This document shows positions 733-32,667 of a DNA stretch of 32,667 bases, piece by piece (within the stretch, counting starts at the first letter, position 1; the number at the start of each line of letters is the position of its first letter). Position numbers and translations under genes: made by a program. Under the pieces are notes generated by a model. The model did not search any database, had not been told where the DNA came from, and worked only from the letters and a program-made list of their open reading frames with translations. The DNA comes from an uncultured Spirochaetales bacterium (GTDB lineage: Bacteria > UBP6 > UBA1177), in NCBI GenBank assembly GCA_902780365.1, contig CACZFE010000028.1:1-32667 (forward strand), given 5' to 3'.

Positions 733-1003
733 CGCGTTCTCTCAGAAAAACACGGATATAGTAGGGTCTGTCGCCTTTAGCATCGATTTTGATAAGCTGC
801 TTGTCCTTGAGTTTCATCGGCATTTTGTAGGTTACGACTTTGCCGTCAGGCATCTGCACTGTCTGCGGCACACCTTCCTGGACTTCATCTACATAAATCA
901 CCTGGTCGATAACGAGCGCGTTTTCAGGCAACTTCGGCTCTACTTCGCAACCGGCCAGAAACATCAGAAAAAGCACCGAAACAGCGATAAAAAACAAACG
1001 CAT
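713..1003 (-). CDS. small lipoprotein, unknown function
   Basis: 96-aa ORF with a signal peptide and lipobox (FLMFLAGC). Its stop overlaps the coaE start by 20 nt, suggesting an operon. Confidence 0.6.
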   Translation of the reverse strand: MRLFFIAVSVLFLMFLAGCEVEPKLPENALVIDQVIYVDEVQEGVPQTVQMPDGKVVTYKMPMKLKDKQLIKIDAKGDRPYYIRVFLRERDGEGKK

Positions 1004-1146
1004 CTTTTCCTCCGGAACAAAAAATTCGCGGCATTATAGTGAAAACGGCTAAAGATACAAATCGCCGATTCTTGACTTTAAATATGATTTTTAATAAATT
1101 CGCCCGTCTGAACCACGCTTATTGTAAATCTATTTGGGGGATATAT

Positions 1147-2745: not shown

Positions 2746-2754
2746 GAGGATAAA

Positions 2755-4883: not shown

Positions 4884-4924
4884 TTTTTCCGATACTTAAA
4901 CAAATTTCAGCTTTTGGAGTCGTT

Positions 4925-6784
4925 ATGAAAAAAATCAATTTTGCACTGATTCTTCTTATCCTATGCATTGCTTCCTGTTCGTCCAAAAACGAAAAACCGG
5001 TTCCTTCAGAAGAAACCAAAACCGCTCCCGCCGCAGCCGCGAAAACGATCGTCGACTACACCGGGATCGAGACCTCGCATTCGGGTTATCTCCTTGAAAA
5101 CGGTTCAAAACTTTACATCGCAAGAAAGGAAAACGCAGCACAGCTTTATCTCGAATCGGCTGACGGAAAAGAGACTAAGCAGCTCACTTTTCTTGAAGAC
5201 GCGGTTGAAAGTTATGCTCTGAGTCCTGATGAATCGCAGCTCATATTCAGTGCGGCAAAAGGCGGGAACGAGCAGTATGATTTTTATCTTTACTCTTTCA
5301 AAACCGGAAAATACGAACCGCTTCTGGTCGATGATTCAATACGTTACGAAGATCCTACGTGGCTTAACGAAAACGAGATCTTATATGCCTCAAACGAAGC
5401 CAACGGAAAGGATTTTTATATCTATCACCTTGATATCGCTGCGAAAAAACGCACTCTTCTGGTTGAAAAGAAAGGCTTCAACAACATAAGCGACGCCCTT
5501 TCGAAAGACGATTTTCTTTTCTACACCTACGAAAGCAACATGAAAACCGTTCCCTACCGCTTCCAGAACGGCAAGGCGAAAAAAATGAAAACAGGCGACG
5601 AGAACAAAAAATATATCCCTATCGCCTATTTCGACGGCGGGATCCTGATGAAAACCAACGAAAAAAATGACATGGAATACCTTGAAATCGTTCTCGATTT
5701 CGCCAAAAAACCGGTTTTTGAGGGCAAATGGGGCGTTGAATCGGTCACTGTTGACTACAAAAGCCGCGATGAAGCCGTTTTCTGCACGAACGAGGAAGGT
5801 TACAGCAAGTGTTTCCACTACAAAAAAGGGGAGATCAAACCGCTTGATTTCGGCAGATCGCTTGTCGGGCTCAATTCGCTCAAAAACGGGAAGCTTGTTC
5901 TCAAAGTTTCTTCGGAAGGCGACATCCCTCAACCGCAAGTATTTGATTTAACTACAAAAACATTTCAGAAATTCGGTTATGTCAACGCAAACGGGATCGA
6001 TGTTTCGCTTTTTGCAACTCCAGAACTCAGAAAGGTGAAAAGTTTCGACGGCGAAGAGATCCCCTACTTCATCTATATTCCTAAAACAGGAAAAGCGCCA
6101 TACACTGTTCTCGTCAGCTTTCACGGCGGTCCGGAAGGTCAGTTCAGGCCCGGTTTCACCCCGCAGTTCCAGTATTTTCTTTCAAAAGGGATCGCCGTCG
6201 CGGCACCGAATGTCCGCGGCTCTTCCGGTTACGGCAAAAGATTTATGGACCTTGACAACTACAAACTCCGCATGAACGCAGTCAAAGACGGCGGCGCGAT
6301 TCTGGAAGACCTAGTGAAAAGCGGCATCGCAAAACCGAACACTTTTATTGCAACCGGCGGAAGTTACGGCGGTTTCATGACAGTCGCGTCGATGGCACAG
6401 TTCGCCGGCGACTACATCTGCGGAATCGACAATGTCGGAGTAGTCGATCTCATCAATTTCCTTGAAAACACCTCAAGTTACAGGCGGCACCTGCGTGAAG
6501 CCGAATACGGTCCCCTCACCGACCGTGAGTTTTTAGCTTCGATTTCACCCACGAACATGGTCGACAAGATCAAAGGAGAGCTTTTCGTTTTCCATGGAGC
6601 GAACGATCCGAGAGTTCCTGTAAGCGACGCCTACATTCTCATCGACAAGATGAAAAAAGCGGGCAAAAAAGTTCAGAAACACATTTTCGAAGACGAAGGA
6701 CACGGATATCGCAAAAAGGCGAACAGAGACATATACTTCCTTAAAAGTGCCGAATTCATTGAAAACTGCGTAAAGGCTAACTAA
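4925..6784 (+). CDS. S9 family serine peptidase (prolyl oligopeptidase / acylaminoacyl-peptidase type), lipoprotein
   Basis: 619 aa with lipobox LILCIASCSS and an N-terminal propeller-like region. The C-terminal alpha/beta hydrolase part carries the nucleophile elbow GGSYGG, Asp in HGANDPRV and His in DEGHGY. Confidence 0.85.
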   Translation: MKKINFALILLILCIASCSSKNEKPVPSEETKTAPAAAAKTIVDYTGIETSHSGYLLENGSKLYIARKENAAQLYLESADGKETKQLTFLEDAVESYALSPDESQLIFSAAKGGNEQYDFYLYSFKTGKYEPLLVDDSIRYEDPTWLNENEILYASNEANGKDFYIYHLDIAAKKRTLLVEKKGFNNISDALSKDDFLFYTYESNMKTVPYRFQNGKAKKMKTGDENKKYIPIAYFDGGILMKTNEKNDMEYLEIVLDFAKKPVFEGKWGVESVTVDYKSRDEAVFCTNEEGYSKCFHYKKGEIKPLDFGRSLVGLNSLKNGKLVLKVSSEGDIPQPQVFDLTTKTFQKFGYVNANGIDVSLFATPELRKVKSFDGEEIPYFIYIPKTGKAPYTVLVSFHGGPEGQFRPGFTPQFQYFLSKGIAVAAPNVRGSSGYGKRFMDLDNYKLRMNAVKDGGAILEDLVKSGIAKPNTFIATGGSYGGFMTVASMAQFAGDYICGIDNVGVVDLINFLENTSSYRRHLREAEYGPLTDREFLASISPTNMVDKIKGELFVFHGANDPRVPVSDAYILIDKMKKAGKKVQKHIFEDEGHGYRKKANRDIYFLKSAEFIENCVKAN

Positions 6785-7659
6785 TGGACAACATTAAATT
6801 TTTTCACGATTTTCTCCTGCATGAGAAACGCCGTTCCATAAAAACAGCCGATTCCTACTGTCTAGATATCGAACTTATGCAGCGTTATTTTACCGAAGTA
6901 GGCATCACTCTCGAAGAGGCCGACAAAGACGACATAAAGGACTACCTCGGAGCGATCTATTCGGAGGTCAAGGCATCATCTCTCAGGCGCAAGATCGCGG
7001 CTGTAAGACAATTCTACCTCTTTCTGCACAAACGCAAAATTATTGAAGATAATCCGACTCTTGCGCTTTCCGGCCCGAAGAAGGACGGCATTCTTCCCGG
7101 CGCCTTGACCCGCGAGGAAATGGCAAAACTGATCGAATACAACTATCCTCAGAATCTCAAAGGGCTGCGTGACCGCGCGATAATCGAAATGCTTTACAGC
7201 AGCGGAGTCCGTGTCGGAGAACTCGTTTCCATCAAAATCAAAGACATGGATTTCAAAGAAAAAACCGTTACCGTTCTGGGAAAAGGCAACAAAGAAAGGC
7301 TGCTTCCGGTAACAAGCCAGGCTATTGATTCTATTGAGAATTATCTTATGAAACGCCCTACCGGAAAAGAGAAGGATTCAATAATTTTCTGCAATTTGAA
7401 CGGCGGTCAGCTCACCGAGCGCGGAGTGCAGTTCATAATCGACACTCTTGCAAGAAACTGCGGGATCTACCGCAAAGTCACTCCCCACATGCTGCGTCAC
7501 AGCTTTGCGACCCATTTTTTGGAAAACGGCATGAATCTCAGGTACTTACAAAAACTTTTGGGACACAGCAACCTCTCCACGACCGAAATTTATACCAATT
7601 TGTCGATTGAACATATTGAAAAAGTCTACCGTAAAGCCCATCCGGGTTCGAAGAACTGA
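6784..7659 (+). CDS. tyrosine site-specific recombinase, XerC/XerD type
   Basis: 291 aa. Contains an N-terminal SAM-like domain and the catalytic motifs ...GVRVGEL..., HMLRHSFATHFL and LGHSNLSTTEIYT. The start overlaps the peptidase stop (TAATG). Confidence 0.85.
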   Translation: MDNIKFFHDFLLHEKRRSIKTADSYCLDIELMQRYFTEVGITLEEADKDDIKDYLGAIYSEVKASSLRRKIAAVRQFYLFLHKRKIIEDNPTLALSGPKKDGILPGALTREEMAKLIEYNYPQNLKGLRDRAIIEMLYSSGVRVGELVSIKIKDMDFKEKTVTVLGKGNKERLLPVTSQAIDSIENYLMKRPTGKEKDSIIFCNLNGGQLTERGVQFIIDTLARNCGIYRKVTPHMLRHSFATHFLENGMNLRYLQKLLGHSNLSTTEIYTNLSIEHIEKVYRKAHPGSKN

Positions 7660-10153: not shown

Positions 10154-10574
10154 AAGTATCTGCGGATATCCGCAGGAAGCGACAGTCGAAGTGACTTCGC
10201 AGACCGGTGCGAAAAAAATCTTTTCTGTAGGAATCGCCGAAACCGCCCGTGAGCACGAACAAGGGCTCATGTACTGCAAAAAAATGGAAAAAAATCAAGG
10301 ACTTTTCTTCATTTTCGACACCGAAAAACCCCACTTTTTCTGGATGAAAAACACATTAATAGAACTTGCAGTGATATTTGTTGACCGCGATTTCAATGTA
10401 ATAGCCGTGAGAAAAGGAGTTCCTCTCAGCAAAACGACCCTTCCCAGCGTGAAACCTTCGCAATTCGTCCTTGAAGTGAACTGGGAAGCGGGAAAATCGA
10501 TCCTTCCCGGCGACAAAATCAAGTTGAAAATGAAGTGCCCCCTCTCTATGACCTCATCCCCAGCCCTTCTCTGA
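10086..10574 (+). CDS. DUF192 family protein with signal peptide
   Basis: TTG start, 162 aa, with the DUF192-type core FFWMKNTLIELAVIFVDRDFNVIAV. It overlaps the thiL 3' end by 68 nt. The last ~10 codons lie inside repeat A. Confidence 0.65.
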   Translation: MKLLAKTALSTLILLNFFLISAESICGYPQEATVEVTSQTGAKKIFSVGIAETAREHEQGLMYCKKMEKNQGLFFIFDTEKPHFFWMKNTLIELAVIFVDRDFNVIAVRKGVPLSKTTLPSVKPSQFVLEVNWEAGKSILPGDKIKLKMKCPLSMTSSPALL

Positions 10575-10625
10575 CCTCACCTCTAACCCCTCTCCAGTGT
10601 GGCGAGGGGAACCTGCGAAGGGAGA
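10545..10625. repeat. Mosaic GC-rich hairpin repeat, copy A
   Basis: Positions 10575-10611 (CCTCACCTCTAACCCCTCTCCAGTGTGGCGAGGGGAA) match the reverse complement of 28474-28510 at 35/37. Internal hairpin is CCCCTC-N11-GAGGGG. The copy lies between the convergent DUF192 and ugd genes. Confidence 0.85.
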
Positions 10626-10629
10626 AATT

Positions 10630-11871
10630 TCAGTCTCTTCTAAAGAAATCTCTGGTGTAGACTTTGTCTTTCACATCGTCGAGAACGGTGTCGTAGCGGT
10701 TCGCGATGATCGCGTCACAGCTTTTCTTGAAGCGTTCGATGTCGTTGACGACAAGCGAGCCGAAGAAAGTCGTGCCCTCTTCCAAAGCGGGTTCATAGAC
10801 TATCACCGTCGCACCTTTCGCCTTGATGCGCTTCATTACCCCCTGGATTGAACTCTGGCGGAAGTTGTCGCTGTTGCTTTTCATCGTGAGGCGGAAAACT
10901 CCTATCGTTATCGGGCGTTCCTTCGAGGCATTCCACATCGAAGAGCCCGTGTAATATCCGGCCTTTGCGAGCACTCTGTCGGCAATGAAATCCTTTCTCG
11001 TGCGGTTGCTTTCGACTATCGCCTGGATCAGGTTTTCAGGAACGTCGGCATAGTTTGCAAGGAGCTGTTTCGTGTCTTTCGGAAGGCAGTAGCCGCCGTA
11101 TCCGAAGGAAGGGTTGTTGTACTGGTCGCCGATCCTCGGATCCAGGCAGACTCCTTTGATGATATTCGCCGTGTCGAGCCCTTTCATTTCGGCGTATGTA
11201 TCCAGTTCGTTGAAGTAACTTACACGAAGCGCGAGGTATGTATTTGCGAAAAGTTTTACCGCCTCCGCTTCCGTAAAATCCATGAAAAGCGTCGGAACAT
11301 CCTTCTTTTCGGCACCTTCTTGCAGAAGTTTTACAAAAATCTCGGCTGCATCGCGTGTTTTTTCGTCGCATCCCGCGATTATCCTGCTCGGATAAAGGTT
11401 ATCGTAAAGCGCTTTCGACTCACGCAAAAATTCCGGACTGAAAATTATGTTCTCACTCCCCTTCTTTTCGCGGATGTGTCTCGTAAAACCTACAGGGATA
11501 GTCGATTTTATCACCATTATCGCGTTTTTGTTGACGCTCATCACAAGGTCGATGACCGCTTCTACCGCGCTCGTATCGAAGAAATTCTTCTGCGGATCGT
11601 AGTTCGTCGGAGCCGCAATAATGACAAAATCAGCATCGGCATAAGCGCTTTTCCCGTCAGTCGTCGCTTTCAGACTCAGCTCCTTTTCAGCTAAATACTT
11701 CTCGATGTAGTCATCCTGGATCGGCGACTTCTTTTCATTAAGAAGTTTCACCTTTTCAGGAACAATATCGACCGCCGTTACATCGTGATGCTGAGAGAGC
11801 AGGACAGCAAGCGAAAGCCCTACATAACCGCTTCCGGCAACAGCTATTTTCAGATCTTCGAATCTGCGCAT
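10630..11871 (-). CDS. ugd: UDP-glucose 6-dehydrogenase
   Basis: ATG at 11871 lies 5 nt after GGAGG. Contains the Rossmann motif [10 protein letters not shown] and the catalytic Cys motif [11 protein letters not shown]. Confidence 0.9.
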
Positions 11872-11884
11872 GATCACCTCCGTA

Positions 11885-12017
11885 AAAACCTCACCCTTTT
11901 TATCTCCCTCTCAGTCGCTTTGCGACAGCTCCCCCAAAGTGGGAGCCAAGCTTGCCTCTCACTCAGGGAGAGGTGGCAGCCAAAGGCTGACGGAGAGGGC
12001 AAAGAGGTCAAACCGCC
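11885..12017. repeat. Mosaic GC-rich hairpin repeats, copy B (in the putative ugd 5' leader)
   Basis: Positions 11953-11981 are identical (29/29) to the reverse complement of 29852-29880. The modules CTCAG-GTCGC-TTT-GCGAC-AGCTCCCC and GGCAGCC-AAA-GGCTG..GGAGAGGGC are colinear with copy E. Confidence 0.85.
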
Positions 12018-12048
12018 GCATTATACTGATTTTTTTAGGAAATGCGAG
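12018..12048 (-). promoter_or_regulatory. 31-nt promoter-like block facing ugd, with a TATAAT -10
   Basis: The minus strand reads CTCGCATTTCCTAAAAAAATCAGTATAATGC. This matches 31703-31733 on the plus strand at 29/31. Confidence 0.35.
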
Positions 12049-12283
12049 AGGGGATTTTATAAAGCATCATAATTTTTTTCGAATATTCTATTGCTTTTTC
12101 ACAACAACAGCATATAATGCGAATCCAGAAAGAACGTCGCCGGACAATGCGAGGGTTTTTTAACCAGCATATTTGTTATGTGGTAGTCGCACCGGGGGTT
12201 CTTTCATTTTTTTCTGCACAAAATCGTGTCTTTTTCAATTCTACGGAATCAGTCATGCGGTTTAGATTGTGGTTTTAGATTAA

Positions 12284-13189
12284 TTAAAAAATCCCTTTTC
12301 CAGATATTTTTCCTAGGACCTTTATCGCCTCGTCATAAGGAACTTTTTTGAACAATAATTTCTCTGTTGTAGCGATATAATCGGCTTTATACGGCTCTTT
12401 TTCTATAATTTCCGCAAGAAGCCTGTTGATTTCCACACCATCCTGTGCAGACAGGCAGATACTACGCTGTTTTCGTTCTTCTCTGACACGATTTACGAGC
12501 TTTTTCAAAGACTCGTCCGGCTTAACAACCTCAAGCAATTTATAAATATCGTATATGTGTCTGGAATGCTGTTCGCATTTACCGTCAAGATAGTAGTCAC
12601 ACAAAGCAAAAACTTTGTCGACAAACGTCCTTTCCGGCTTTTGGACTTTTATCGGGAACGGTCGAATATCGCTCGTATCCATAAAATCCAGCGCATTCTC
12701 TTTGCTCAGATAATCAAAAATATAATTGCCAACATTTCGCGTTTCGGTGGGATATATGCCTGTAAAAACAGCGGTTTCCACAATCAGTTTGCGGTTTACA
12801 GCGGAAAAAGCAAAAACCGACGGATAACCGATCACATAACGGTTAAAATCCCTGCGGCTGCGTATCTCGTCAAAATTCTCAAGATTCAGTCCGGAAACGT
12901 TTACAGCCTCAACAATACCTTCTTTCAGTTTTCTCCTCCGCCCTTCGGAAGGTTTCTCATTTTCTTCAAATATCGACAGATCTATGTCTTCCGAAAAACG
13001 GTCTATCAAACGGTAGCATTTTGACAACGATGTTCCGCCTTTAAAAATAATGTCAGGTACCAGTGAAGCTATGCTTCTAAGCAGCAGAGTAACATAGTAA
13101 TCCTTTTCTATAATCGCGGAGTCTATGCCGTATTCCGCAGAAACTCTGAGAAGAATATCCTCAAAAATATCACGATTTTCATGCAACAC
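12284..13189 (-). CDS. AbiEii/AbiGii-family nucleotidyltransferase toxin (type IV TA / abortive infection)
   Basis: 301 aa with the DUF1814-type motif FKGGTSLSKCYRLIDRFSEDIDLS. It is paired with an upstream AbiEi-like gene. Confidence 0.8.
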   Translation of the reverse strand: MLHENRDIFEDILLRVSAEYGIDSAIIEKDYYVTLLLRSIASLVPDIIFKGGTSLSKCYRLIDRFSEDIDLSIFEENEKPSEGRRRKLKEGIVEAVNVSGLNLENFDEIRSRRDFNRYVIGYPSVFAFSAVNRKLIVETAVFTGIYPTETRNVGNYIFDYLSKENALDFMDTSDIRPFPIKVQKPERTFVDKVFALCDYYLDGKCEQHSRHIYDIYKLLEVVKPDESLKKLVNRVREERKQRSICLSAQDGVEINRLLAEIIEKEPYKADYIATTEKLLFKKVPYDEAIKVLGKISGKGIF

Positions 13190-13796
13190 TGTATATCACC
13201 TCGCTCACAATAAGGTTTCGCATAGCCTTGTCCGGGAAAAACCGGCTGTATTCCGTAATCATGTTCCGGGTAATCCCCTTTTCTTTTATGAACCGGCAGA
13301 CCGTTTTTTTTCTTTCGTCATCAAAAAACTCTGCCGATGTGAAGTTCATCAGTTCCAGAAGTTGCATAACATCGGAATTTTCTTTTGTGATTTTCGTTCT
13401 GGAACGCCTCAGGATCACTTTCTGGGAATTGACAGAAATCTCCCTCAATTTTGTCTTCTCATTGTTGGTATAAATTTCAATGCTGTTAGGCATCTGAGTC
13501 GAGAGATTCATCAGGTTGAGCAGCGTATTTCCCGAATAATATCCAATAGTATCATTCCCGTCAGATATATATTTTTTCAGAATGACTTTTCTCGGATCAA
13601 GAAGAGTTTTCCCTAAAAAAGTCGTCTTCGGAATATAACAGACACCTTTGTCATATCTGACAATCTGCCCGTTTTTGCAAAGACGGCTCAATTCCTTGAA
13701 TATCCATGGTCTGGAATAATCCTCGAACTGGATATCACTCGTAAAAATCGGCTCGTTATAACCATATTTTTTCAACAAAAACTCATATAAACCCAT
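13179..13796 (-). CDS. AbiEi-family antitoxin / transcriptional regulator
   Basis: ATG at 13796 lies 7 nt after GGAGG. The N-terminal wHTH-like segment is ...IFKELSRLCKNGQIVRYDKGVCYIP. It overlaps the toxin gene by 11 nt. Confidence 0.75.
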   Translation of the reverse strand: MGLYEFLLKKYGYNEPIFTSDIQFEDYSRPWIFKELSRLCKNGQIVRYDKGVCYIPKTTFLGKTLLDPRKVILKKYISDGNDTIGYYSGNTLLNLMNLSTQMPNSIEIYTNNEKTKLREISVNSQKVILRRSRTKITKENSDVMQLLELMNFTSAEFFDDERKKTVCRFIKEKGITRNMITEYSRFFPDKAMRNLIVSEVIYSVA

Positions 13797-13893
13797 GGTG
13801 CGACCTCCATTTTCCACATTTTATATCATATCATACCTTGTAAGTCAATAAAAATATAATTTGCGGAGATTTAGGTGAAAAACGCATCCGTAG

Positions 13894-13915
13894 GGACGTA
13901 ACCTGATACGTCTCC
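13894..13915. repeat. GAGACG-N10-CGTC hairpin module upstream of abiEi
   Basis: GGACGTAACCTGATACGTCTCC. Over the central 20 nt its reverse complement differs by one base from 31463-31482. AAAAACGCATC lies adjacent at both sites. Confidence 0.7.
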
Positions 13916-15822: not shown

Positions 15823-16839
15823 TTAGTTTTGAGCCTTTATCTCTTTACCAGAAAATGTCCCGTAAGGTTTTCCTGACACATCTCCAGTTTTATAATAATC
15901 TGCCAACATCTTCAAAACAATATCAATATCTTTTTCATCTTCAATGAGAAGATTGCCATTATCGACCTTCAGGTTATCTCCATATTTTTTACAAACATTT
16001 TTCATTTTGCTTATAGCCTTATCATCAATATTTCGATAATTGCCTATTCTGGCGATACGAACAAGCTTTTTATGCAATGACGGGGTTGTTTCTATTTGTT
16101 CTGCTATCTTTTCTAATCCTTTTATCTTATTGGTTTGTTTTAATTGCTCAACAACTTTTTTAGCTTCTTCCTTATACTCTTCTTGTAACCCAACAATTTG
16201 TTCAAAACACCCCTTTTTGATAACATAAAAAATTTCGTCATAATAGATGCAGTCTATTTGTTTATCAAGATTTACAGTTTCACCTTTTAGCAATTCCAAT
16301 TTTTGATTTGTTGTATCAAAGAATGTACGAATTATTCTTAACCAACTCTTCCCTTCTCGCTCATCAACAGCAACTTTACCGGATTGTATTTTTCTAAATG
16401 TATAAATCCAATCCTTGGCTGTTAAATCGTTAAAACCGACGCAATAAGCCCACAATTCATCATTGTTTTGAAGTATTGCTTCAATACTTTGCATTTTATC
16501 CGGGCTTTTTTGCAGTTGATTTGTGACGACATCGGCAAATGAGAAGACTTTATTTTTCATTGAATATGTAAACAAATGCTCTGTGTCATCAGAAATGACA
16601 TCATAATCTATCATTTCAAAGTTCTTTTTTATCGTTATATTTAATTGCTCTTGAGATAAATCATATAGATACTGCCTGATTTCATCATTGATATCTACTT
16701 GATAAACCTTGAATAGATACTTGTCCATTACCTTGCTTGATTTTTTAATGTTTTCTTTAAGCATTCTGGTAATGAAAAACAACTTAAGATCAACCACTTC
16801 AGTAGATGTAATTTTGTCCAAAATTTCTTGTAATGTCAT
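15823..16839 (-). CDS. soluble protein, KwaB (DUF4868)-like by size and context; family not verifiable here
   Basis: 338 aa with no TM segment and no catalytic motif recognised, plus a charged helical stretch LQEEYKEEAKKVVEQLKQTNKIKGLEKIAEQIE. The start overlaps the stop of the upstream 4-TM gene (ATGA). The DNA is very AT-rich. Confidence 0.5.
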   Translation of the reverse strand: MTLQEILDKITSTEVVDLKLFFITRMLKENIKKSSKVMDKYLFKVYQVDINDEIRQYLYDLSQEQLNITIKKNFEMIDYDVISDDTEHLFTYSMKNKVFSFADVVTNQLQKSPDKMQSIEAILQNNDELWAYCVGFNDLTAKDWIYTFRKIQSGKVAVDEREGKSWLRIIRTFFDTTNQKLELLKGETVNLDKQIDCIYYDEIFYVIKKGCFEQIVGLQEEYKEEAKKVVEQLKQTNKIKGLEKIAEQIETTPSLHKKLVRIARIGNYRNIDDKAISKMKNVCKKYGDNLKVDNGNLLIEDEKDIDIVLKMLADYYKTGDVSGKPYGTFSGKEIKAQN

Positions 16840-17471
16840 GTTGTTTCCCTATGTCTATCTGCAAAAAACAATTTAAAACCAATAGAGTATATTTTTACAA
16901 TACTTCCTTCTTCTATGTTTGCATTCCTCATAATAATCATTCCGCTTTTTCTTTTCCCGTTTTGCTCCTCATATTCAATTTCAAATATGGAATATTTAAA
17001 GTTTATAACCGGATTTACAAGTAACAGGCTGGAATTGATGTATATGCGGTATATAATAAATAACAAAAACAACAGAGCAAATACTTCATATACAGTATTG
17101 AAGCCTTGAAATATAAACGGGATAATGTAAGTTGCAATGTATCCTATGGAGTCGCCGTTTCTATTGGAAATTTTTATGATAGTAACATTGTCTCCATTCT
17201 TTACATTCTTTTGTAAATTAAAAAACAATAATTTACAACCAACCAAAGACAGCATGGATATGATTATGAGCAATACTGAAAGTCCAAACTTAATAAAAAA
17301 AGTCCCAACCGTTGCTTGAGAAATTCCACACCAACATAAAAATTGAGCATTGTTGCAAATCTGCTTGAATGCAATTAGTATGAACAGTGGTAAGTAGGAA
17401 GTAAGAAAAAGCACCAGTTTGGCTATTCCATACAGGTTATTATGCTTCGTTTGTTTTTCACTCGTTCCCAT
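16836..17471 (-). CDS. four-TM membrane protein, KwaA-like by architecture
   Basis: 211 aa with four hydrophobic helices: LVLFLTSYLPLFILIAF, FGLSVLLIIISMLSLVG, IGYIATYIIPFIF and VFALLFLLFIIYRIYI. A soluble tail of about 60 aa follows. Confidence 0.5.
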   Translation of the reverse strand: MGTSEKQTKHNNLYGIAKLVLFLTSYLPLFILIAFKQICNNAQFLCWCGISQATVGTFFIKFGLSVLLIIISMLSLVGCKLLFFNLQKNVKNGDNVTIIKISNRNGDSIGYIATYIIPFIFQGFNTVYEVFALLFLLFIIYRIYINSSLLLVNPVINFKYSIFEIEYEEQNGKRKSGMIIMRNANIEEGSIVKIYSIGFKLFFADRHRETT

Positions 17472-26833: not shown

Positions 26834-27690
26834 GAATCCTTACTTTTGACATAGAAGAGTGGTTTCATCTTTTGGATAACCCATCAACCAAAACAGAAAA
26901 TGAATGGGAAAAATACGAGGTAAGAATTTATCAAAATGTTGACAAAATTCTTGAAATCATTGAAAAAACCGACACTAAAGCAACGTTTTTCATCATAGGC
27001 TGGATTGCAAAAAAATATCCGGACATCGTAAAGCGTATTTCCGAAAAATATGAAATCGGATCACATACCTGCTACCATCAGTTGGTTTGGCAACAGAATC
27101 AAAAAGAATTCAAAGAAGATTTGTCAGCTTCAATCAAACTTTTGCAAGATATTTCCGGCAAACCGGTAAAATATTTCAGGGCTCCCGGATTTTCAATCAG
27201 AACAAGCGAATTGTGGGCATTTGAAGTGATAAAAGAATGCGGAATAGAAATAGACTGCTCGATCTTCCCTGCACATCATGCCCACGGAGGGATCCCACTT
27301 TTCCCAAAACCATATCCTTCAATAATTCAATACAAAGGAATCAAACTGAAAGAATTTCCATGTGTATTTAAAAATATCGGAAAACACCACATTGTTTTCT
27401 CTGGTGGAGGATATTTCAGAATTATTCCTTATTGGCTGCTCAAAAAATGGACGTCAAAATGTAACGAATATCTTCTTTCCTATATTCACCCAAGAGATCT
27501 GGATGCAACCCAACCAATGATTAAGGATTTGCCTTTAAAAAGGAAATTCCGCTCCTATATCGGCATAAAAAATGCAGCGAACAAATTGGAAAAATGGCTC
27601 ACAGACTTTGATTTCACAGATATTGAAACGGCCGACAAATCTTTTGACTGGAACAAAGCTCAGATCGTTAATTTTGATCAGATAAAATAA
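26830..27690 (+). CDS. polysaccharide deacetylase family protein (DUF3473-type)
   Basis: 286 aa with an N-terminal ILTFDIEEWFH, plus ATFFIIGW and SHTCYH metal-site-like motifs. ATGA overlap with the preceding gene. Confidence 0.7.
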   Translation: MRILTFDIEEWFHLLDNPSTKTENEWEKYEVRIYQNVDKILEIIEKTDTKATFFIIGWIAKKYPDIVKRISEKYEIGSHTCYHQLVWQQNQKEFKEDLSASIKLLQDISGKPVKYFRAPGFSIRTSELWAFEVIKECGIEIDCSIFPAHHAHGGIPLFPKPYPSIIQYKGIKLKEFPCVFKNIGKHHIVFSGGGYFRIIPYWLLKKWTSKCNEYLLSYIHPRDLDATQPMIKDLPLKRKFRSYIGIKNAANKLEKWLTDFDFTDIETADKSFDWNKAQIVNFDQIK

Positions 27691-28562
27691 GCATTTATTG
27701 AAAAAGATTTTTGGGCTGGAAGTCGCTTCAAATTCCAATACTTCTTCACCCCTCTCGCCGTATACCAGCACATGAAATATGCTGCTTCAAACAGGTTCAA
27801 ACCGACATGGCGGTAAGTTTTCCATGTTCTGAATGCAGCTTTCATCTTGTTTCTCGTCATCGAGTTCGTAGACAAACGGTACGAGAGCAGAGGTTCATCC
27901 AACCCGATGATTTTACACCCTGATTTAGCCATTTTTAGCCACATCGCAAAATCACTGCTTATATCATCACCGATGACATAGAACTGCTCGTAAAGCTCCT
28001 TTTTCACAAGAACAGACGAGTTGGAAATAATATCCTGCTTCAAAAGCTCGCGGTATGAAATGGTGCATGGAACATGAAGCTGCCAGTTTATGTGATTTCC
28101 GTCGTTGTCGATGAATGCGGAACCGGTGAAAACAAGGTCGGCATTCTCTTTTTCGGCGAGAGCGAACTGCTTTTCAAGTTTGCAACTGTCCCAGATATCG
28201 TCGCTGTCAAGCACCGCGATCCACTCGCCTTTCGCAGCTTCAAGAGCTTTTTTGCGGGTGAGGGAGACACCGAGATTGCTCTCGTTACTGATAACACGGA
28301 TGCGCGGATCGGATTTCGCGAAAGAATCAGCAATTTCCAAGGTGTTGTCTTTCGAACAATCGTTCACCACAATCAGTTCCCAATCGGTATATGTCTGCGC
28401 CAGTACGGAACGGATCGCCGCTGCGATTTTAGACCCCTCGCCTTTTGGAGACGTTTCATGAAACGTCTCTACATTCCCCTCGCCACACTGGAGAGGGGTC
28501 AGGGGTGAGGTTCCCGCATTGTATGCCGCCATGATTATGGTGATCAATGGTCTAGTCATCAT
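27678..28562 (-). CDS. glycosyltransferase family 2 carrying an in-frame repeat-element insertion near the N-terminus
   Basis: Shows GT-A features: IIMAAYNA, LIVVNDCSKDN and AVLDSDDIW (DxD). TSPLTPLQCGEGNVETFHETSPKGEG is intercalated between AAYNAG and SKIAAAIRSVLAQTY. Confidence 0.8.
   Translation of the reverse strand: MMTRPLITIIMAAYNAGTSPLTPLQCGEGNVETFHETSPKGEGSKIAAAIRSVLAQTYTDWELIVVNDCSKDNTLEIADSFAKSDPRIRVISNESNLGVSLTRKKALEAAKGEWIAVLDSDDIWDSCKLEKQFALAEKENADLVFTGSAFIDNDGNHINWQLHVPCTISYRELLKQDIISNSSVLVKKELYEQFYVIGDDISSDFAMWLKMAKSGCKIIGLDEPLLSYRLSTNSMTRNKMKAAFRTWKTYRHVGLNLFEAAYFMCWYTARGVKKYWNLKRLPAQKSFSINAYFI
28434..28511. repeat. Mosaic hairpin repeat, copy C, inside the GT2 CDS
   Basis: Three parts. 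28474-28510 is the reverse complement of the copy A core (35/37). 28448-28469 is the perfect 22-nt palindrome GAGACGTTTCATGAAACGTCTC. 28434-28446 (CCCCTCGCCTTTT) is identical to 29780-29792. Confidence 0.85.
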
Positions 28563-28568
28563 TACTTC

Positions 28569-29525
28569 TCAACACTTTCCATCCGAATACCCTTGATAAG
28601 CTGATTTCAGAATCTTCTCAAATCGGATTCTGATTCCCTGCTTATAATATTCCTTCCTGACTGCACTGCAAATCGGAATCCCTTCATAGGATTCAGGAAC
28701 ATCATCAATCAGTTTATATATATCCTGAAGATGGTTTTCTATCAGCGGAACATTTCTTTTTACAGCATCCCGCAAACCCGGGCAATCCATCATAATAAGT
28801 TTTGGACCGCTGAGAATATGACCATCTACTTCATAAGCCGTTACTGAAGCCCCCAGAACATCTCTCTCCAACTTATCTTTTTGCATATGCATTACTATTT
28901 GTTCATCCGATGTTTTATTGGAAAAAGCGTTCCCGTTATCATACACAGGAGCTATTTTGTAAATTTCCCCATTGAAAACCAACCCCCAGTTGCCGTTATT
29001 CCGATCATTGTTATCGATAAGAATATCAACAACCACCATGTCCCAAAAATGTTCCTTCAAGCCTTCGACATTTTTGAGATGACGATTCTCTTCCAAATGA
29101 AACAAAAGCTCCGGCAGATTTACTCTGTCACCTGATTTTGATTCAGCAAAACCCTCAAGTTCTTCTGTCCGTTCTTCACTATACGCATTTTTTATTGTGC
29201 GTATTTCAGACAATCCTCCGCGAATTACGCAAAAATCCTTGCAGGCAACAACTACTTTGCCTTTCTTTATGCCAAGCAGCGTCTTGTGGACATCGTAGCC
29301 CAGAATCTCGTAGACATGACTCCCGAGATATTCCGACAGCGGTGCGGTCGTATAGGAAATATTACGAGCATTATTCCTCATTCCTCGAGTAGTCTTAGGA
29401 TACTTTATAAACCAAAACTCCCCGTCAATCAGTATACCGTCTTTGTTTCCGCCATTACCACCGTATATTCCGTCACGGTTGCTGAGAGGAAAAAGTTTTT
29501 CGTCATCAAAATTGTATATCTGCAT
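28569..29525 (-). CDS. HipA-family (HipA_C-like) Ser/Thr kinase, putative toxin
   Basis: I chose the ATG at 29525; the track ORF begins at an upstream GTG. 318 aa with the G-rich loop YGGNGGNKDG, the catalytic-loop-like ILIDNNDRNNGNWGLVF, and KIAPVYDNGNAF matching the HipA AP-x-YD motif. Confidence 0.6.
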   Translation of the reverse strand: MQIYNFDDEKLFPLSNRDGIYGGNGGNKDGILIDGEFWFIKYPKTTRGMRNNARNISYTTAPLSEYLGSHVYEILGYDVHKTLLGIKKGKVVVACKDFCVIRGGLSEIRTIKNAYSEERTEELEGFAESKSGDRVNLPELLFHLEENRHLKNVEGLKEHFWDMVVVDILIDNNDRNNGNWGLVFNGEIYKIAPVYDNGNAFSNKTSDEQIVMHMQKDKLERDVLGASVTAYEVDGHILSGPKLIMMDCPGLRDAVKRNVPLIENHLQDIYKLIDDVPESYEGIPICSAVRKEYYKQGIRIRFEKILKSAYQGYSDGKC

Positions 29526-29527
29526 TT

Positions 29528-29761
29528 TTACCACTCCGGGTATCTGGAGACAATAATATCCCACTGTTTTTGATTCATATGCCCACTGGCTACAGATGCT
29601 TTGCACAACATATCTACGGCTCTTGCCATACCGAAATACTGCGGATCGCCTTCCCGATCATATCTTTCGCAGTCTTCGATTGTATTTCTAAGCACTTCGC
29701 CATGAATAGGGAATTCGATTTTTACATCATCATTGATCCAACGGTATTGCACTGATCTCAT
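29528..29761 (-). CDS. 77-aa protein of unknown family, candidate cognate antitoxin/partner of the kinase
   Basis: AAGGAG lies 6 nt upstream of the ATG at 29761. Its stop TAA (29528-29530) is 2 nt from the kinase ATG. No HTH is recognisable. Confidence 0.5.
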   Translation of the reverse strand: MRSVQYRWINDDVKIEFPIHGEVLRNTIEDCERYDREGDPQYFGMARAVDMLCKASVASGHMNQKQWDIIVSRYPEW

Positions 29762-29980
29762 TTACATCTCCTTTCTATTCCCCTCGCCTTTTGAAGACAT
29801 TTGACCCCTCAGACAACCTGCGGTTGCCGTATAGCCCTCTCCGGCAGCCCCGGCTGCCACCTCTCCCTGAGTGAGAGGCAGGGAAAGACTTGGCCCGCCC
29901 TTCTCAGCTCCTACTTCAGGGGAGCCTATAGAGGTGCCCGCATTGTATGCCGCCATAATTATAGTGATAGTCGGTGTCAT
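29762..29980 (-). pseudogene. Orphan GT2 5' stub fused to repeat copy D
   Basis: Encodes MTPTITIIMAAYNAGTS, close to the N-terminus of the intact GT2 (ITIIMAAYNAGTS), followed only by repeat-derived sequence. It ends with TAA directly before the 77-aa gene ATG. Its start overlaps the upstream gene stop (ATGA). Confidence 0.6.
29778..29935. repeat. Mosaic GC-rich hairpin repeats, copy D
   Basis: 29852-29880 is the reverse complement of 11953-11981 (29/29). 29803-29828 is the reverse complement of 31673-31698 (24/26, both mismatches in the hairpin loop). 29780-29792 is identical to 28434-28446. Confidence 0.85.
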
Positions 29981-31446
29981 TTTTCAACCACCTCCCAATG
30001 ACCGCCTTTGTCTGGACCGATACGGCGGATAAGATTTTCTTTTTGCATTTCGCTCAACATCTTTTTGACAGTCGTATGACCTAATCCCAGTTCTTCTTCC
30101 AATTTTACTATTGTGATAAAACTATCGTTTTTAATGGCGGCAAGTATTTGGCGGATTTTTTCTGGCCACTTTTCTGGCCACTTTTCTGGCCATTTTTCTA
30201 TTTTCTGGTCACTTTCTGTACCCTTTTCATTTCCCTGTATATTTCCTTCCTCTCCGGCATTCAATTCAAAAGGTGCGGCATCTATCTTGTTGAACGGAAT
30301 TGTGACTACGATAAAATTCTTTTTGACAGCGATTGTATCGCGTCCGTATGCCTTGACGATCGTTGGAACACCGCGCCCTGAACGCTCGCTAAGCCTGAGC
30401 TGAAGGAAAATCGAGGCAAGTGCTTCGTTTACGGGAATGCTGACTCCATTATAAAAACCTTCTAGATCCTGTTCGATTCCAAGCCCGCCGTGGGAGACGA
30501 TTTCTATTCTGTCGGTGAACACGCTTATCATCGGGGCATTCATGGCAAGCCATTTGTTGTGAATGAAAGCATTCAAAAGTGCTTCGTGGAAAGCCTCGTA
30601 ATCAAAAAGAGGAACATCTTTGCGTTCCGAAATACGCCCGCGTTCGTCAGCCTGAATGATGTTTATAGCGTCGCCGTATTCCAGTATTTTATCCATGGAA
30701 TACAAAATGCAGGAATTTCCGTATTCTTTCACGGAAAAAAGAGTGTCAGCCTTGGTTTTTCCGCTGAAAACAGAAACGCGGATCGGAATATCATTTGAAT
30801 CGGCAAGCAGGAGTGCCATTATGTTGTAGCGGCCGTCTGCTGTCAGCAGTTTGAGCGTTTTCTTAAAGGTGTCACGTCTGAGTCTGATCCCTTTTGCACC
30901 GTAATACAAAAAGAGTTTCTCGAAAGTCAGATCCTGCGCATAATCAGGTGAGGCAGTGTTCACGATAGTAGGAATTCCGTTTGAAAGCACGTTCAGCAGA
31001 CGGATTTCCCACTCCGGAAATTTTGAAATCTTTTCCTTGCTTGAACCTATCCGGATAAACGTCTGGTTCATGAACTTTGTCGGAACGGATTTCGCGGCAG
31101 GAACAGTCAGCAAAACAATTCTTTTGCCGGAAATTTCAGCTTCATCGACTTCAAACGCAAGACTCGGCTTTAAGTGGCGTGCAAGGTAATGTTTGTAAGG
31201 TTCGTGCTCGATATCCTTGTCGAAATTAACCGTTGTTCCGGTAATTTCATGCGTTTTGTCACTCACACCCCAGACAATATAGCCGTATTCCCGCCCGCTC
31301 AAAGCCGCGCCGTTGGAAATCGCGGAAATATATTCACCGATTTCGTCCTTTGAAAACCAGTTCTCTTTGAAATCGAGCCATTCGTATTCGTGCGGAAGCA
31401 AAATCAGGTTCGTGACAGTGTCAATTATGTTGAGGGCGGGTGTCAT
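29977..31446 (-). CDS. AlbA_2 (Schlafen-like) / HATPase_c_4-like / C-terminal wHTH protein, of the class often annotated as RecG-like transcriptional regulator
   Basis: 489 aa. N-terminal HEYEWLDFKENW...AISNGAALSGREYGYIVWGV. Middle FHEALLNAFIHNKWLAMNAPMISVFTDRIEIVSHGGL. C-terminal ITIVKLEEELGLGHTTVKKMLSEMQKENLIRRIG. AAGGAG RBS is present. Confidence 0.8.
   Translation of the reverse strand: MTPALNIIDTVTNLILLPHEYEWLDFKENWFSKDEIGEYISAISNGAALSGREYGYIVWGVSDKTHEITGTTVNFDKDIEHEPYKHYLARHLKPSLAFEVDEAEISGKRIVLLTVPAAKSVPTKFMNQTFIRIGSSKEKISKFPEWEIRLLNVLSNGIPTIVNTASPDYAQDLTFEKLFLYYGAKGIRLRRDTFKKTLKLLTADGRYNIMALLLADSNDIPIRVSVFSGKTKADTLFSVKEYGNSCILYSMDKILEYGDAINIIQADERGRISERKDVPLFDYEAFHEALLNAFIHNKWLAMNAPMISVFTDRIEIVSHGGLGIEQDLEGFYNGVSIPVNEALASIFLQLRLSERSGRGVPTIVKAYGRDTIAVKKNFIVVTIPFNKIDAAPFELNAGEEGNIQGNEKGTESDQKIEKWPEKWPEKWPEKIRQILAAIKNDSFITIVKLEEELGLGHTTVKKMLSEMQKENLIRRIGPDKGGHWEVVEK
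30158..30193. repeat. 12-nt tandem repeat x3 (TTTTCTGGCCAC), coding (EKWP)3
   Basis: Units at 30158-30169, 30170-30181 and 30182-30193 (last base differs), followed by a degenerate copy. It lies in the linker before the wHTH. Confidence 0.9.
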
Positions 31447-31462
31447 TTATTTATCTCCTTCT

Positions 31463-31484
31463 GAGACGCATCAGGTTACGTCTC
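31463..31484. repeat. GAGACG-N10-CGTCTC hairpin module immediately upstream of the AlbA_2-gene RBS
   Basis: GAGACGCATCAGGTTACGTCTC. Related to 13894-13915 (reverse complement) and to the palindrome at 28448-28469. Confidence 0.7.
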
Positions 31485-31547
31485 TACAAAAAAACGCATC
31501 TCGCGCGTGAAACATATTGAAATTAGTGAAAAAGTCAACAAATACAA

Positions 31548-31702
31548 ACCCCTCCGTCACTGCGTGACACCTCCCAGACCCCTCAGCCGCTTTGCGGCAG
31601 CTCCCCTACCTCAGGGGAGCCTTGACGGGGAGGCAAGAATCGGTAGAAAGGCGCCCCTAAATTAGGGGAGCTGGCAACCAAAGGTTGTCTGAGGGGTCTC
31701 TT
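31548..31702. repeat. Mosaic GC-rich hairpin repeats, copy E
   Basis: Contains the hairpins GTCAC-TGC-GTGAC, GCCGC-TTT-GCGGC, GCTCCCCT-ACCTC-AGGGGAGC, GCGCCCCT-AAATT-AGGGGAGC and GGCAACC-AAA-GGTTGTC+TGAGGGGTC. Module order is colinear with copy B. Confidence 0.85.
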
Positions 31703-31733
31703 CTCGCATTTCCAAAAAAATTCAGTATAATGC
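31703..31733 (+). promoter_or_regulatory. 31-nt promoter-like block facing the capE/fnlA-like gene, with TATAAT at 31726-31731
   Basis: CTCGCATTTCCAAAAAAATTCAGTATAATGC. It matches the minus strand of 12018-12048 at 29/31 and lies 43 nt upstream of the ATG at 31774. Confidence 0.4.
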
Positions 31734-31773
31734 ACCGTTTTTGTTGATGTTCACTTTTTAAACGAGGTTGAAG

Positions 31774-32667
31774 ATGACTGAATTTAACGGCGCGACGCTG
31801 ATGATCACGGGCGGAACGGGCTCGTTCGGAAATACCGTTCTCAAACATTTCCTCACTTCCGATATCGCTCAGATCCGAATTTTCTCGCGTGACGAGAAGA
31901 AGCAGGACGATATGCGCCACGACTTGCAGGCGAAATATCCCGATTATGCTAAAAAAGTTAAATTTTATGTCGGCGATGTCCGTGATCCGCGTTCTCTGGC
32001 TGACGCGATGCCGGGTGTCGACTATATTTTCCACGCAGCCGCATTGAAACAGGTCCCCTCTTGCGAATTCTTCCCGATGCAGGCGGTAAAAACCAATGTT
32101 GAAGGGACCGACAACATGCTTCACGCTGCAATAAATGCGGGTGTAAAGAGAGTCGTCTGCCTCAGCACTGACAAAGCCGCTTATCCGATAAACGCGATGG
32201 GGATAAGCAAGGCGATGATGGAACACGTCATCTATGCGAACGCGAGAGTCGCTGCAGAGCGTGGCGGAACTGTTATCTGCTGCACCCGTTACGGCAACGT
32301 AATGTGCAGCCGCGGTTCGGTAATCCCGCTTTTCATCGACCAGATCCACGCCGGAAATCCGATAACGATAACAGACCCGAACATGACGCGTTTCCTGATG
32401 AACCTTGACGAGGCGGTAGAACTTGTCAGATTCGCTTTCGGGCACGCAAATCCGGGCGATCTCTTCATCCAGAAAGCAGACGCTTCGACGATCGGAGACC
32501 TGGCAAAGGCTGTGCAGAAACTTTTCGGCGACACCGGAACCAACATCATCGGCACAAGGCATGGCGAAAAACTTTACGAAACCCTTATGACAAGAGAGGA
32601 AAGGCTCCGTTCCGAAGATATGGGAAAATACTTCAGAGTCGCAGCCGACAACCGCGACCTCAACTAC
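31774..32667 (+). CDS. UDP-N-acetylglucosamine 4,6-dehydratase/5-epimerase (CapE/FnlA/WbjB family), 3'-truncated by the window edge
   Basis: Not in the ORF track because it has no stop in the window. GAGG RBS is present. My own translation gives MTEFNGATLMITGGTGSFGNTVLKHFL...IRIFSRDEKKQDDM...HAAALKQVPSCEFFP...CLSTDKAAYPINAMGISKAMME...TRYGNVMCSRGSVIPLFIDQI...TDPNMTRFLM...GTRHGEKLYETLMTREE...RDLNY. These are hallmark CapE/FnlA strings. Confidence 0.9.
   Translation, partial: MTEFNGATLMITGGTGSFGNTVLKHFLTSDIAQIRIFSRDEKKQDDMRHDLQAKYPDYAKKVKFYVGDVRDPRSLADAMPGVDYIFHAAALKQVPSCEFFPMQAVKTNVEGTDNMLHAAINAGVKRVVCLSTDKAAYPINAMGISKAMMEHVIYANARVAAERGGTVICCTRYGNVMCSRGSVIPLFIDQIHAGNPITITDPNMTRFLMNLDEAVELVRFAFGHANPGDLFIQKADASTIGDLAKAVQKLFGDTGTNIIGTRHGEKLYETLMTREERLRSEDMGKYFRVAADNRDLNY

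Follow-up and report, generated by a model that had tools for sequence, protein, structure and literature searches.

From ~10.6 kb onwards, the 32,667-nt stretch analysed here, which we refer to as the window, is a surface-polysaccharide locus broken up by defence and toxin-antitoxin genes. One gene of this locus encodes a GT2 glycosyltransferase, and its 5' part contains a block of small hairpin repeats of an intergenic type. Related contigs and homologous proteins compared with the window carry L and P numbers, respectively. A first-pass annotation of the sequence had placed an in-frame repeat block at 28431-28514; we confirm the block, although these limits are too wide by one flanking codon per side. 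The gene, the block and its three modules, the second of which resembles a repetitive extragenic palindrome (REP), are as follows.

27678-28562, minus strand: GT2 (GT-A fold, TuaG-like) glycosyltransferase gene, an intact open reading frame (ORF) of 294 aa that harbours the insert
28434-28511, minus strand: in-frame repeat block of 78 nt, 26 codons, GT2 residues 18-43 (TSPLTPLQCGEGNVETFHETSPKGEG)
28474-28511, minus strand: module 1, 38-mer ACCTCACCCCTGACCCCTCTCCAGTGTGGCGAGGGGAA, consisting of ACCTCACCCC-N5-hairpin CCCTCTCCAGTGTGGCGAGGGG
28448-28472, minus strand: module 2, GTAG-headed palindrome GTAGAGACGTTTCATGAAACGTCTC, REP-like
28434-28447, minus strand: module 3, AAAAGGCGAGGGG, half a copy of module 1's 3' arm; it forms the insert's right edge and coincides with a recombination breakpoint

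Codon by codon, the N-terminus of the protein reads MMTRPLITIIMAAYNAG-[TSPLTPLQCGEGNVETFHETSPKGEG]-SKIAAAIRSVLAQTY, with IIMAAYNAG just before the insert. The block lies between strand beta1 and helix alpha1, two residues past the AYN motif, and its 26 codons are all open, in agreement with the earlier description of a preserved frame without a stop. Two of the six possible frames of the block are stop-free.

Each module recurs elsewhere in the window. Module 1 matches 10574-10611 as a 38-mer with 2 mismatches (95% identity), a match found in 0/100 shuffles; the repeat had previously been recognized as a 37-mer at 10575-10611. The perfect 22-nt palindrome that had been described, GAGACGTTTCATGAAACGTCTC, is present at 28448-28469 with GTA in front, and belongs to a family of GTAG palindromes with three copies in the window (13890-13914, 28448-28472 and 31463-31487; chance expectation, 0). 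For module 3, the 13-mer shared with 29780-29792 proved to be part of a 19-nt match at 95% identity between 28434-28452 and 29780-29798. The half-module GGCGAGGGG occurs four times in the window, compared to 0.1 expected. That the modules recur in non-coding DNA holds true for the window and for related genomes, except that the copy at 29780-29798 sits within a 72-aa ORF (29762-29980). Apart from the copies in this ORF, all remaining module copies in the window are intergenic, and five of its seven repeat islands are intergenic, though intergenic DNA makes up only ~6% of the window. Folded alone, the 78-nt block gives a closed, Y-shaped structure (RNA, -33.6 kcal/mol), and the 84 nt of 28431-28514 folded as DNA give z = -2.9. 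An Rfam search of the window placed no RNA family on any module. The copies and islands that recur below are these.

10574-10611, plus strand: module 1 copy located between two convergent genes, in their 55-nt intergenic spacer, and directly next to the DUF192 stop codon
11880-12054: intergenic repeat island, with modules common to the B cluster and 31550-31741
13890-13914, plus strand: intergenic copy of the GTAG hairpin
29762-29980, minus strand: 72-aa remnant ORF, made up of a second GT2 5' end (MTPTITIIMAAYNAG) and a repeat cluster, and ending in the next gene's leader
29780-29935, minus strand: B cluster, 156 nt, 52 codons, composed of other repeat modules
31463-31741: divergent intergenic region, with the GTAG hairpin 31463-31487 and a mosaic island at 31550-31741

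The insert among alleles and in the predicted enzyme

The GT2 protein matches Pfam PF00535 (Glycos_transf_2) with E = 4e-35 and 121.7 bits (cut-off, 23.3), and its best NCBIfam model is TuaG, at 205 bits, under the equivalog cut-off of 400. An AlphaFold2 model built on a 118-sequence alignment has the Rossmann-like GT-A fold (mean predicted local distance difference test, pLDDT, 85.8; predicted template-modelling score, pTM, 0.84). Its top Foldseek matches are SpsA, PmHS2, K4CP and TarP, with E = 1e-16 to 1e-17 for the first three, and its DxD motif, DSDD at residues 119-122, is invariant across the family alignment. In the model, beta1 (7-13) is followed by a loop (14-44) and alpha1 (45-54); pLDDT drops below 50 at residues 20-41 only and is ~95 in the remainder, so that the insert is the disordered part of an otherwise intact fold. 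P0004, an orthologue that lacks the insert, presents these elements in the same order, with beta1 and alpha1 joined by a loop of 6 residues. Pfam and NCBIfam alignments to GT2 begin at residues 42-50, cut off by the insert; for annotation, the consequence is that GT2 profile matches are cut short there.

The family consensus at this site is AAYNAEKT-IxxAIxSVLxQTY, and the window reads NAG[26 aa]SKI; as the first-pass annotation had stated, deleting the block restores the normal spacing, and it does so exactly. The block is without counterpart in 115 of 118 aligned homologues. Internal insertions of at least 6 aa are seen among these 118 only in the window protein and in P0001, its closest relative (93% identity, alignment A2); the insertion of this closest allele is a different one, of 63 nt. 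P0003 carries the window's own block. The orthologues on contigs L004 (88% nucleotide identity) and L005 (81%) have an empty site, which in L004 reads AATGCCGGTGCGACACTGGAT and encodes NAGATLD (NAGATLDI). An ancestral loop is rejected: hardly any homologue carries the block, L004 and L005 are unoccupied at this position, and the modules recur in non-coding DNA. These data support the idea that the block is an in-frame insertion of intergenic-type repeat modules. A protein search with the concatenated module peptides returned only the window's 72-aa ORF, the word index being too coarse for short low-complexity segments, and the 30-aa insert region, searched exhaustively with HMMER, gave five matches, all to unrelated tandem-repeat proteins, which are uninformative on how frequent such peptides are.

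Several versions of the block exist at this site. Contig L058 has the same 78-nt block as the window, and L002, which is syntenic with the window at 95-96% identity, has a different block of 63 nt at the identical site (TSIGSPEIGELDAKQPERSGR). With the B cluster, the variants measure 63 nt (L002), 78 nt (window and L058) and 156 nt, and all are in frame. A more distant orthologue, P0016, carries a 198-nt in-frame cluster of the same module families at a second site, after AQT, and ~125 nt of it are collinear with the window's intergenic island 31540-31700 (72.6% identity); P0023 has a shorter in-frame cluster of these families at a third site. Both of these sites lie in the beta1-beta2 segment. 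Every variant has a length that is a multiple of three and is stop-free in the gene frame. As to composition, L002 retains only ACCTC of module 1, the window copy retains module 1 and differs in its 3' half, and L059 holds module 1, the GGCTCCCC...GGGGAGCTG module and an AAKQ segment. Between variants, there is no conservation of the encoded peptide (TSPLTPLQCGEG... versus TSIGSPEIGELDAK...); only the openness of the frame is kept. Alignment of the filled with the empty site (GGGA|ACCTC...GAGGGG|TCTAAA versus AATGCCGGTGCGACACTG) revealed no target-site duplication such as a MITE (a miniature transposable element with inverted repeats) would leave, and the only terminal complementarity of the insert is its 6-bp outer stem.

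The AYN motif touches the nucleotide sugar in GT-A enzymes, as seen in SpsA-type structures. The gene had been read as either an enzyme that tolerates an extra loop beside its nucleotide-binding strand or a freshly inactivated allele. We favor the tolerated loop, based on the in-frame variants at the site, dN/dS values of 0.12-0.25 and a confident GT-A fold in which only the insert is disordered, and the sequences and model suggest that GT2 is probably still made and active. For the GT2 body, dN/dS is 0.12 for window-L002, 0.20 for window-L058 and 0.25 for L002-L058, compared to 0.25 for the insert-free pair L004-L005. Recent inactivation, in which the gene would be a young pseudogene allele that has yet to acquire stops or frameshifts, seems unlikely to us. 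It would fit an insert two residues from the nucleotide-binding motif, profile matches that are broken at the insert (Pfam/NCBIfam from residues 42-50), and the nature of polysaccharide loci, which are strain-variable and often contain decaying genes, one example being the internally deleted kinase gene of L058. However, full-length ORFs are seen in independent samples for three alleles that differ in their insert at the site, and all variants are multiples of three and open in the gene frame, including the 156-nt cluster, which is open in only one of six frames. Moreover, the dN/dS values equal those of the insert-free orthologues, and the window and L058, which share the insert, have bodies that differ by a dS of 0.38 with no disruption.

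Improbable, too, is that the insert represents a selected functional addition, i.e. a donor-site lid, a peptide for interactions or a structure in the mRNA that adjusts GT2 translation. The frame has been kept through several module replacements, the self-contained structure of -33.6 kcal/mol falls within the initial 130 nt of coding sequence, and such clusters occur at three neighbouring sites in the same GT2 family. Against this, the peptide differs between variants, the insert is predicted to be disordered, and stops in the other frames are what dictate the reading frame. The possibility that the hairpins affect translation had been raised before, but the predicted effect is small: the hairpins begin at codon 18, start-site accessibility is nearly the same with the insert (0.53 → 0.44), and the 201-nt 5' region is no more structured than shuffles (z = -1.4). 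A translation-blocking hairpin was set aside because the ribosome-binding region is scarcely affected.

Junctions at the edges of the repeat clusters

The first-pass annotation overlooked that the GT2 5' end is duplicated, with the upstream copy carrying its own cluster (29780-29980), that a kinase cassette lies between the copies, and that the cluster edges are breakpoints. The features between and upstream of the two copies are listed here.

28569-29761, minus strand: two-gene cassette between both GT2 5' ends
29528-29761, minus strand: 77-aa protein, first gene of the cassette
28569-29525, minus strand: CtkA/HipA-like kinase of 318 aa (PDB 3akj, CtkA, E = 5e-30; weak HipA_C match)
29977-31446, minus strand: gene for a protein with SLFN/AlbA_2, HATPase_c_4 and winged helix-turn-helix (wHTH) domains (Pfam), the conserved left flank of the junction

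The first 15 GT2 codons are present twice, at 28507-28544 and 29931-29968, with 92% identity. The upstream copy is 1.4 kb away, and its start at 29980 overlaps the stop of the SLFN/AlbA_2 gene (ATGA). The GT2 start of L059 likewise overlaps the AlbA_2 stop, and in L004 the AlbA_2 gene is absent. Of the six frames of the B cluster, the only open one is the GT2 frame, and joining the cluster in silico to the GT2 body yields an in-frame protein of 319 aa. Modules of the B cluster match 11953-11981 (100%), 31673-31698 and 31605-31622, and both GT2-linked clusters of the window terminate in TCTYCAAAAGGCGAGGGG. The B cluster leads into AATAGAAAGGAGATGTAAATG and the two-gene cassette; next are the second 5' end of GT2, the 78-nt block and finally the body of the gene. 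The SLFN/AlbA_2 gene has 95-96% nucleotide identity to L002 and L036, and the kinase cassette is absent from the syntenic contig L002. For gene callers, the 72-aa remnant counts as a gene.

At the edges of these clusters, related contigs break off or change ancestry. Between the window and L058, we counted 0 differences in the 399 nt upstream and one (at 28436) in the 78-nt block, followed by 11 differences in the first 100 nt beyond the right edge of the insert and 64 in 539 nt overall (Fisher P = 1.6e-17 versus 1/477 before the edge). The window and L002 share a common gene body (21 differences in 756 nt) and differ in the 5' end and insert. An independent cow-rumen run yielded L056, which follows window 30028-28510 at 99.8% identity and departs after ...AATGCGGGAAC into a GT4-like gene. 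In L059, the only contig retrieved when metagenomes were scanned for the GT2 5' motif, the order is AlbA_2 end, GT2 5' end, module 1, the GGCTCCCC...GGGGAGCTG module, the AAKQ segment, a stop and an unrelated gene. L059 unites pieces that are split between the window copy and L002, which suggests an older, longer cluster from which modules were lost or swapped in place. The breakpoints fall within a few nucleotides of AATGCGGGMAC and differ from one another by several nucleotides. Because ancestry changes at the cluster edges (P = 1.6e-17), the comparisons indicate that the repeat clusters are recombination junctions. REPs are known join-points of duplications and deletions.

A dedicated, integron-like system of site-specific recombination could in principle move the cassettes, with the duplicated GT2 5' end as part of an attachment site. 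Toxin-antitoxin or defence cassettes lie beside the GT2 start in three strains (kinase in the window, MqsA-like in L002, MNT/HepT in L060), repeat islands border the AbiE, AlbA_2 and kinase cassettes, the breakpoints cluster within a few nucleotides of AATGCGGGMAC, and there is a tyrosine recombinase gene at 6784-7659. We nevertheless consider such a system very unlikely. The MqsA-like cassette of L002 is not bounded by modules, with only AAAAAT repeated, and inspection of the modules by eye revealed no core sites of the attC type (GTTRRRY/RYYYAAC). The recombinase gene is 20 kb off and has an ordinary Xer-type domain make-up, and the breakpoints vary by several nucleotides, and homologous exchange accounts for the mosaic pattern.

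Assemblers tend to break contigs at these modules, and L057 and L058 indeed start or end within them, but the chance that a chimera formed via collapsed repeats explains the arrangement or the insert is negligible: the exact GT2 protein is found on four contigs, and each junction recurs in an independent assembly, namely in L056 (99.8%; SRR094926) from the remnant via the cassette to the second 5' end, in L057 (100%; ERR3224605) from the cassette via the 5' end to the insert and in L058 (ERZ28614274) from the insert to the gene body, so the arrangement is not an assembly artefact.

From the composition of the block, its polymorphism, the conservation of frame, the predicted fold and the breakpoints, we infer the following history. 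A mosaic of small hairpin modules, resembling REPs and bacterial interspersed mosaic elements (BIMEs) and usually intergenic in this rumen lineage, would have entered the 5' part of GT2. The block may persist on two accounts: its length is a multiple of three with no stop in the gene frame, and the beta1-alpha1 junction would let the 26 extra residues loop out as a disordered surface segment. Because the block is in frame, stop-free and apparently looped out at this junction, the enzyme is most likely made and active. The cluster would then have turned over in place, with modules gained, lost and swapped by recombination between short motifs such as GGCGAGGGG, and its edges appear to have served as short-homology crossover points. 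In the window, an incoming segment (kinase cassette, second GT2 5' end and 78-nt cluster) appears to have been joined to the end of the repeat cluster that belonged to the resident gene itself. The simplest history would be an exchange with the GT2 body as one homology and a GGCGAGGGG-type module as the other, short one; the donor would be another strain, and the old 5' end would have been left as the 72-aa remnant ORF. We put the probability of this reading as a whole (mosaic entry, tolerated loop, turnover in place and crossover at the edges) at roughly 70%.

Several points weigh against it. The insert is two residues from the AYN motif and might change the activity or specificity of the enzyme. 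Given a deep alignment, AlphaFold would return this fold for a dead enzyme too, and the presumed activity with the insert is read from sequence and predicted fold. Recombination at the insert edge means that the dN/dS divergence is not strictly assignable to the time after insertion. For the block, we found no target-site duplication, clear terminal inverted repeats or transposase. Finally, only a few short metagenome contigs underlie the putative donor/recipient history.

The modules in other genomes and known repeat systems

The 22-nt hairpin core of module 1 was found in 46 stretches of GTDB representative genomes, compared to ~0.5 expected (uniform base composition). An unselected motif, CCTCACC, lies 5-11 nt upstream in 39/47 copies of the module. 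Carriers include UBP6 metagenome-assembled genomes (MAGs), unclassified rumen MAGs, Chloroflexota/Anaerolineae, Fibrobacteraceae, Chitinispirillaceae, Treponema, Kiritimatiellia and Bacteroidales. In the collected loci (L009-L054), the 38-nt module 1, (G)ACCTCACCCC-N5-6-CCCTCTCCANTGTGGCGAGGGG, is nearly base-for-base alike in MAGs of several phyla. Some of the contigs that carry it exceed 1 Mb (Fibrobacteraceae, and a Chloroflexia copy without the upstream motif), so mis-binning is not the explanation for all cases. Multiple module copies occur in 8-kb pieces of related MAGs. Module 2 shows compensatory stem changes in loci of related rumen MAGs (GAGACGT/ACGTCTC versus GAGCCGT/ACGGCTC), and in L034 the GTAG hairpins form three inverted doublets, compared to the single GTAG hairpin of the GT2 insert.

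Modules also occur in frame in other genes. In L012, module 1 is in frame in a 929-aa sensor/AraC-type protein (4068-6857), with two to three copies in the linker after the membrane helix, read in another frame (DLTPEPLSGVARGE). In L053, it is in frame in a 780-aa Mu-transposase-like protein (867-3209; TSPQTPLQCGEG). At L004 2790-2899, P0002 lacks its usual stop and gains a 34-aa tail (..GSTETGELATAGRLRGQKSQMEINK) from two intergenic modules.

The GTAG palindrome extends further. Over its full 30 nt, it has 87-97% matches in 11 cyanobacterial plasmids and an exact 27-nt match in Halotia; of the 12 plasmid records that match it, 11 are cyanobacterial (Nostocales and Oscillatoriales). In the Halotia branconii plasmid NZ_CP124544.1 (77138-77169; L065), the palindrome is in frame in a nonribosomal peptide synthetase (NRPS), ...VVFPNVETFHETSLQLTYQQL... 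(NVETFHETSLQ), and in plasmid p3 of Planktothrix agardhii (L066), the palindrome, as tandem variants, is in frame in a polyketide synthase (PKS; NVEMPQNVETPQNVETLHATSLQ). It is read in the same frame in GT2 and in the NRPS and PKS because both other frames contain TAG or TGA. Module 1 gave only weak matches to plasmids, at 84-87% identity in Azospirillum and Methylobacterium. Nostocales harbour small dispersed repeats (SDR), reportedly described by Elhai and colleagues in 2008 (Genome Res 18:1484) as 21-27-nt hairpins that are apparently mobile and nest in one another. The exact GTAG palindrome of the GT2 insert occurs in Nostocales plasmids, a likeness to these repeats that is a lead and not a test.

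The identity of modules across phyla is the most surprising and least explained part of the data. Near-identical modules in several phyla, including the same-frame palindrome in cyanobacterial NRPS and PKS genes, fit poorly with a view of lineage-specific vertical inheritance. One tentative idea, to which we give only a modest chance, is that the modules are a family of very small hairpin elements (25-40 nt), near-identical across distant phyla, that are spread horizontally by conserved machinery (RAYT-like, i.e. akin to REP-associated tyrosine transposases, or other). They would repeatedly enter genes in one stop-free frame ('...VETFHETS...', '...PLQCGEG...') and serve as portable short homologies for swapping toxin-antitoxin or defence cassettes and gene 5' ends in surface-polysaccharide loci. 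If that is true, the GT2 insert would be the footprint of a general gene-shuffling device and not a one-off event.

Rickettsia palindromic elements (RPEs) are Rickettsia-specific palindromic single units of ~100-150 bp that encode a conserved peptide and lie in frame in protein genes (PMC10969869). Like them, the elements described here are palindromic, multi-copy and mostly non-coding, one of them is read in frame in a conserved enzyme at a fold-compatible site, and one element family is found in unrelated genes (GT2, the 929-aa sensor of L012 and the Mu-transposase-like protein of L053). Unlike an RPE, the GT2 block is a mosaic of 14-38-nt modules whose peptide varies between alleles and whose modules are swapped in place, and its host is a free-living rumen bacterium, not a reduced intracellular one. 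By analogy, the GT2 block is best described as a functional analogue of RPEs and not a member of RPE families, from which it differs in size and organism. For Rickettsia, palindromic repeats read in frame within enzymes are textbook matter, but elsewhere they are poorly documented; here they occur in a free-living uncultured rumen lineage, built from far smaller modular units that are replaced in place with the frame staying open.

By definition, a REP has a GT(A/G)G head to which a GC-rich, imperfect palindrome is directly joined (Nunvar 2010, PMC2817692). Only module 2 has this architecture, (T)GTAG-AGACGT-loop-ACGTCTC; modules 1 and 3 are without the GTAG head. The copies resemble REPs in their compensatory stem variation. 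Those in the window are mainly extragenic, as would be expected of REPs, and the three inverted doublets of L034 may correspond to BIME or REPIN units (PMC3337134), as the clusters, mosaics of hairpins and linker motifs, may to BIMEs. The modules differ in that a cluster is read inside the GT2 ORF, REPs being extragenic by definition, and in that module 2 is near-identical in Cyanobacteria and module 1 in several phyla, whereas REP families are usually lineage-specific. No RAYT gene was found among the annotated genes of the 32,667-nt window. Another system to be compared is that of intragenic MITE-type elements (ERIC, Correia, BOX and cyanobacterial MITEs), which are small, non-autonomous and known from in-frame fusions or C-terminal extensions (PMC10969869). 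The C-terminal read-through into modules in P0002 (L004) and in the DUF192 gene tail is similar, but the GT2 site shows neither evident terminal inverted repeats nor target-site duplications, and the units are far shorter than typical MITEs. The locus ties together REP/BIME-like repeats, loop insertions in proteins and junctions that shuffle toxin-antitoxin or defence cassettes in a polysaccharide locus.

Neighbouring genes, host lineage and minor features

Three groups of defence or toxin-antitoxin genes lie in the polysaccharide locus.

12284-13817, minus strand: AbiEii and a DUF6088-like partner
15823-17471, minus strand: Kiwa KwaA/KwaB defence genes
28569-31446, minus strand: SLFN/AlbA_2 gene, 77-aa protein and CtkA/HipA-like kinase

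Repeat islands flank the AbiE, AlbA_2 and kinase cassettes. In L002 (1446-1673), an MqsA/YgiT-type zinc-finger gene has been inserted after the AlbA_2 stop, ahead of the GT2 start, and in L060 (1483-2119), an MNT/HepT pair lies directly upstream of GT2. Modules at cassette borders are a tendency and not a rule, the MqsA-like cassette of L002 being unbounded by them. The kinase gene of L058 (247-606) has lost 597 nt internally (window 29508 to 28910), which leaves a 119-aa ORF, and the cassette is decaying there. A search with the gene context of UDP-glucose dehydrogenase, aimed at polymorphism of the AbiE cassette, retrieved only the window's own contig. In the AlbA_2 gene, at 30113-30200 (plus-strand coordinates), a 12-nt tandem repeat, TTTTCTGGCCAC x3, encodes EKWPEKWPEKWPEK; L036 has another repeat, AEKVTEKVAEKVTVKVTE, at this position, which points to a variable linker.

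The nearest named genome is the yak-rumen MAG RGIG10122, 95% identical along 1.3 kb. For a housekeeping-type peptidase, all homologues with identities of ≥47% are labelled just 'bacterium', and the next are from Planctomycetota, at ~36%. Judged by these comparisons, the window comes from an uncultured, deeply branching rumen lineage. A cyanobacterial or melainabacterial origin, which the shared palindrome might suggest, was rejected on the peptidase homologues. A search of a phage collection gave no match and hence no sign of phage origin.

The last ~10 residues of the window's DUF192 protein (10540-10574; PLSMTSSPALL) are encoded by a degenerate copy of module 1, whose TGA provides the stop. 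Two 45-nt sequences, 12010-12054 and 31697-31741, form an inverted repeat pair (84% complementary) that includes CAGTATAATGC, a -10-like box; the copies lie upstream of the genes for UDP-glucose dehydrogenase (ends 11871) and Polysacc_synt_2 (starts 31774). The pair could constitute a common promoter module that is linked to the repeat islands. Two ORFs are probably spurious: 31657-32562 (minus), which overlaps the genuine plus-strand Polysacc_synt_2 gene (from 31774; Pfam E = 5e-101), and 11870-12163 (plus), which consists largely of repeat modules. The sole Rfam match in the window is a DUF3800-VII RNA (RF02967; 12129-12209, plus; 60.1 bits, E = 4e-10), placed between a repeat island and the AbiEii gene.

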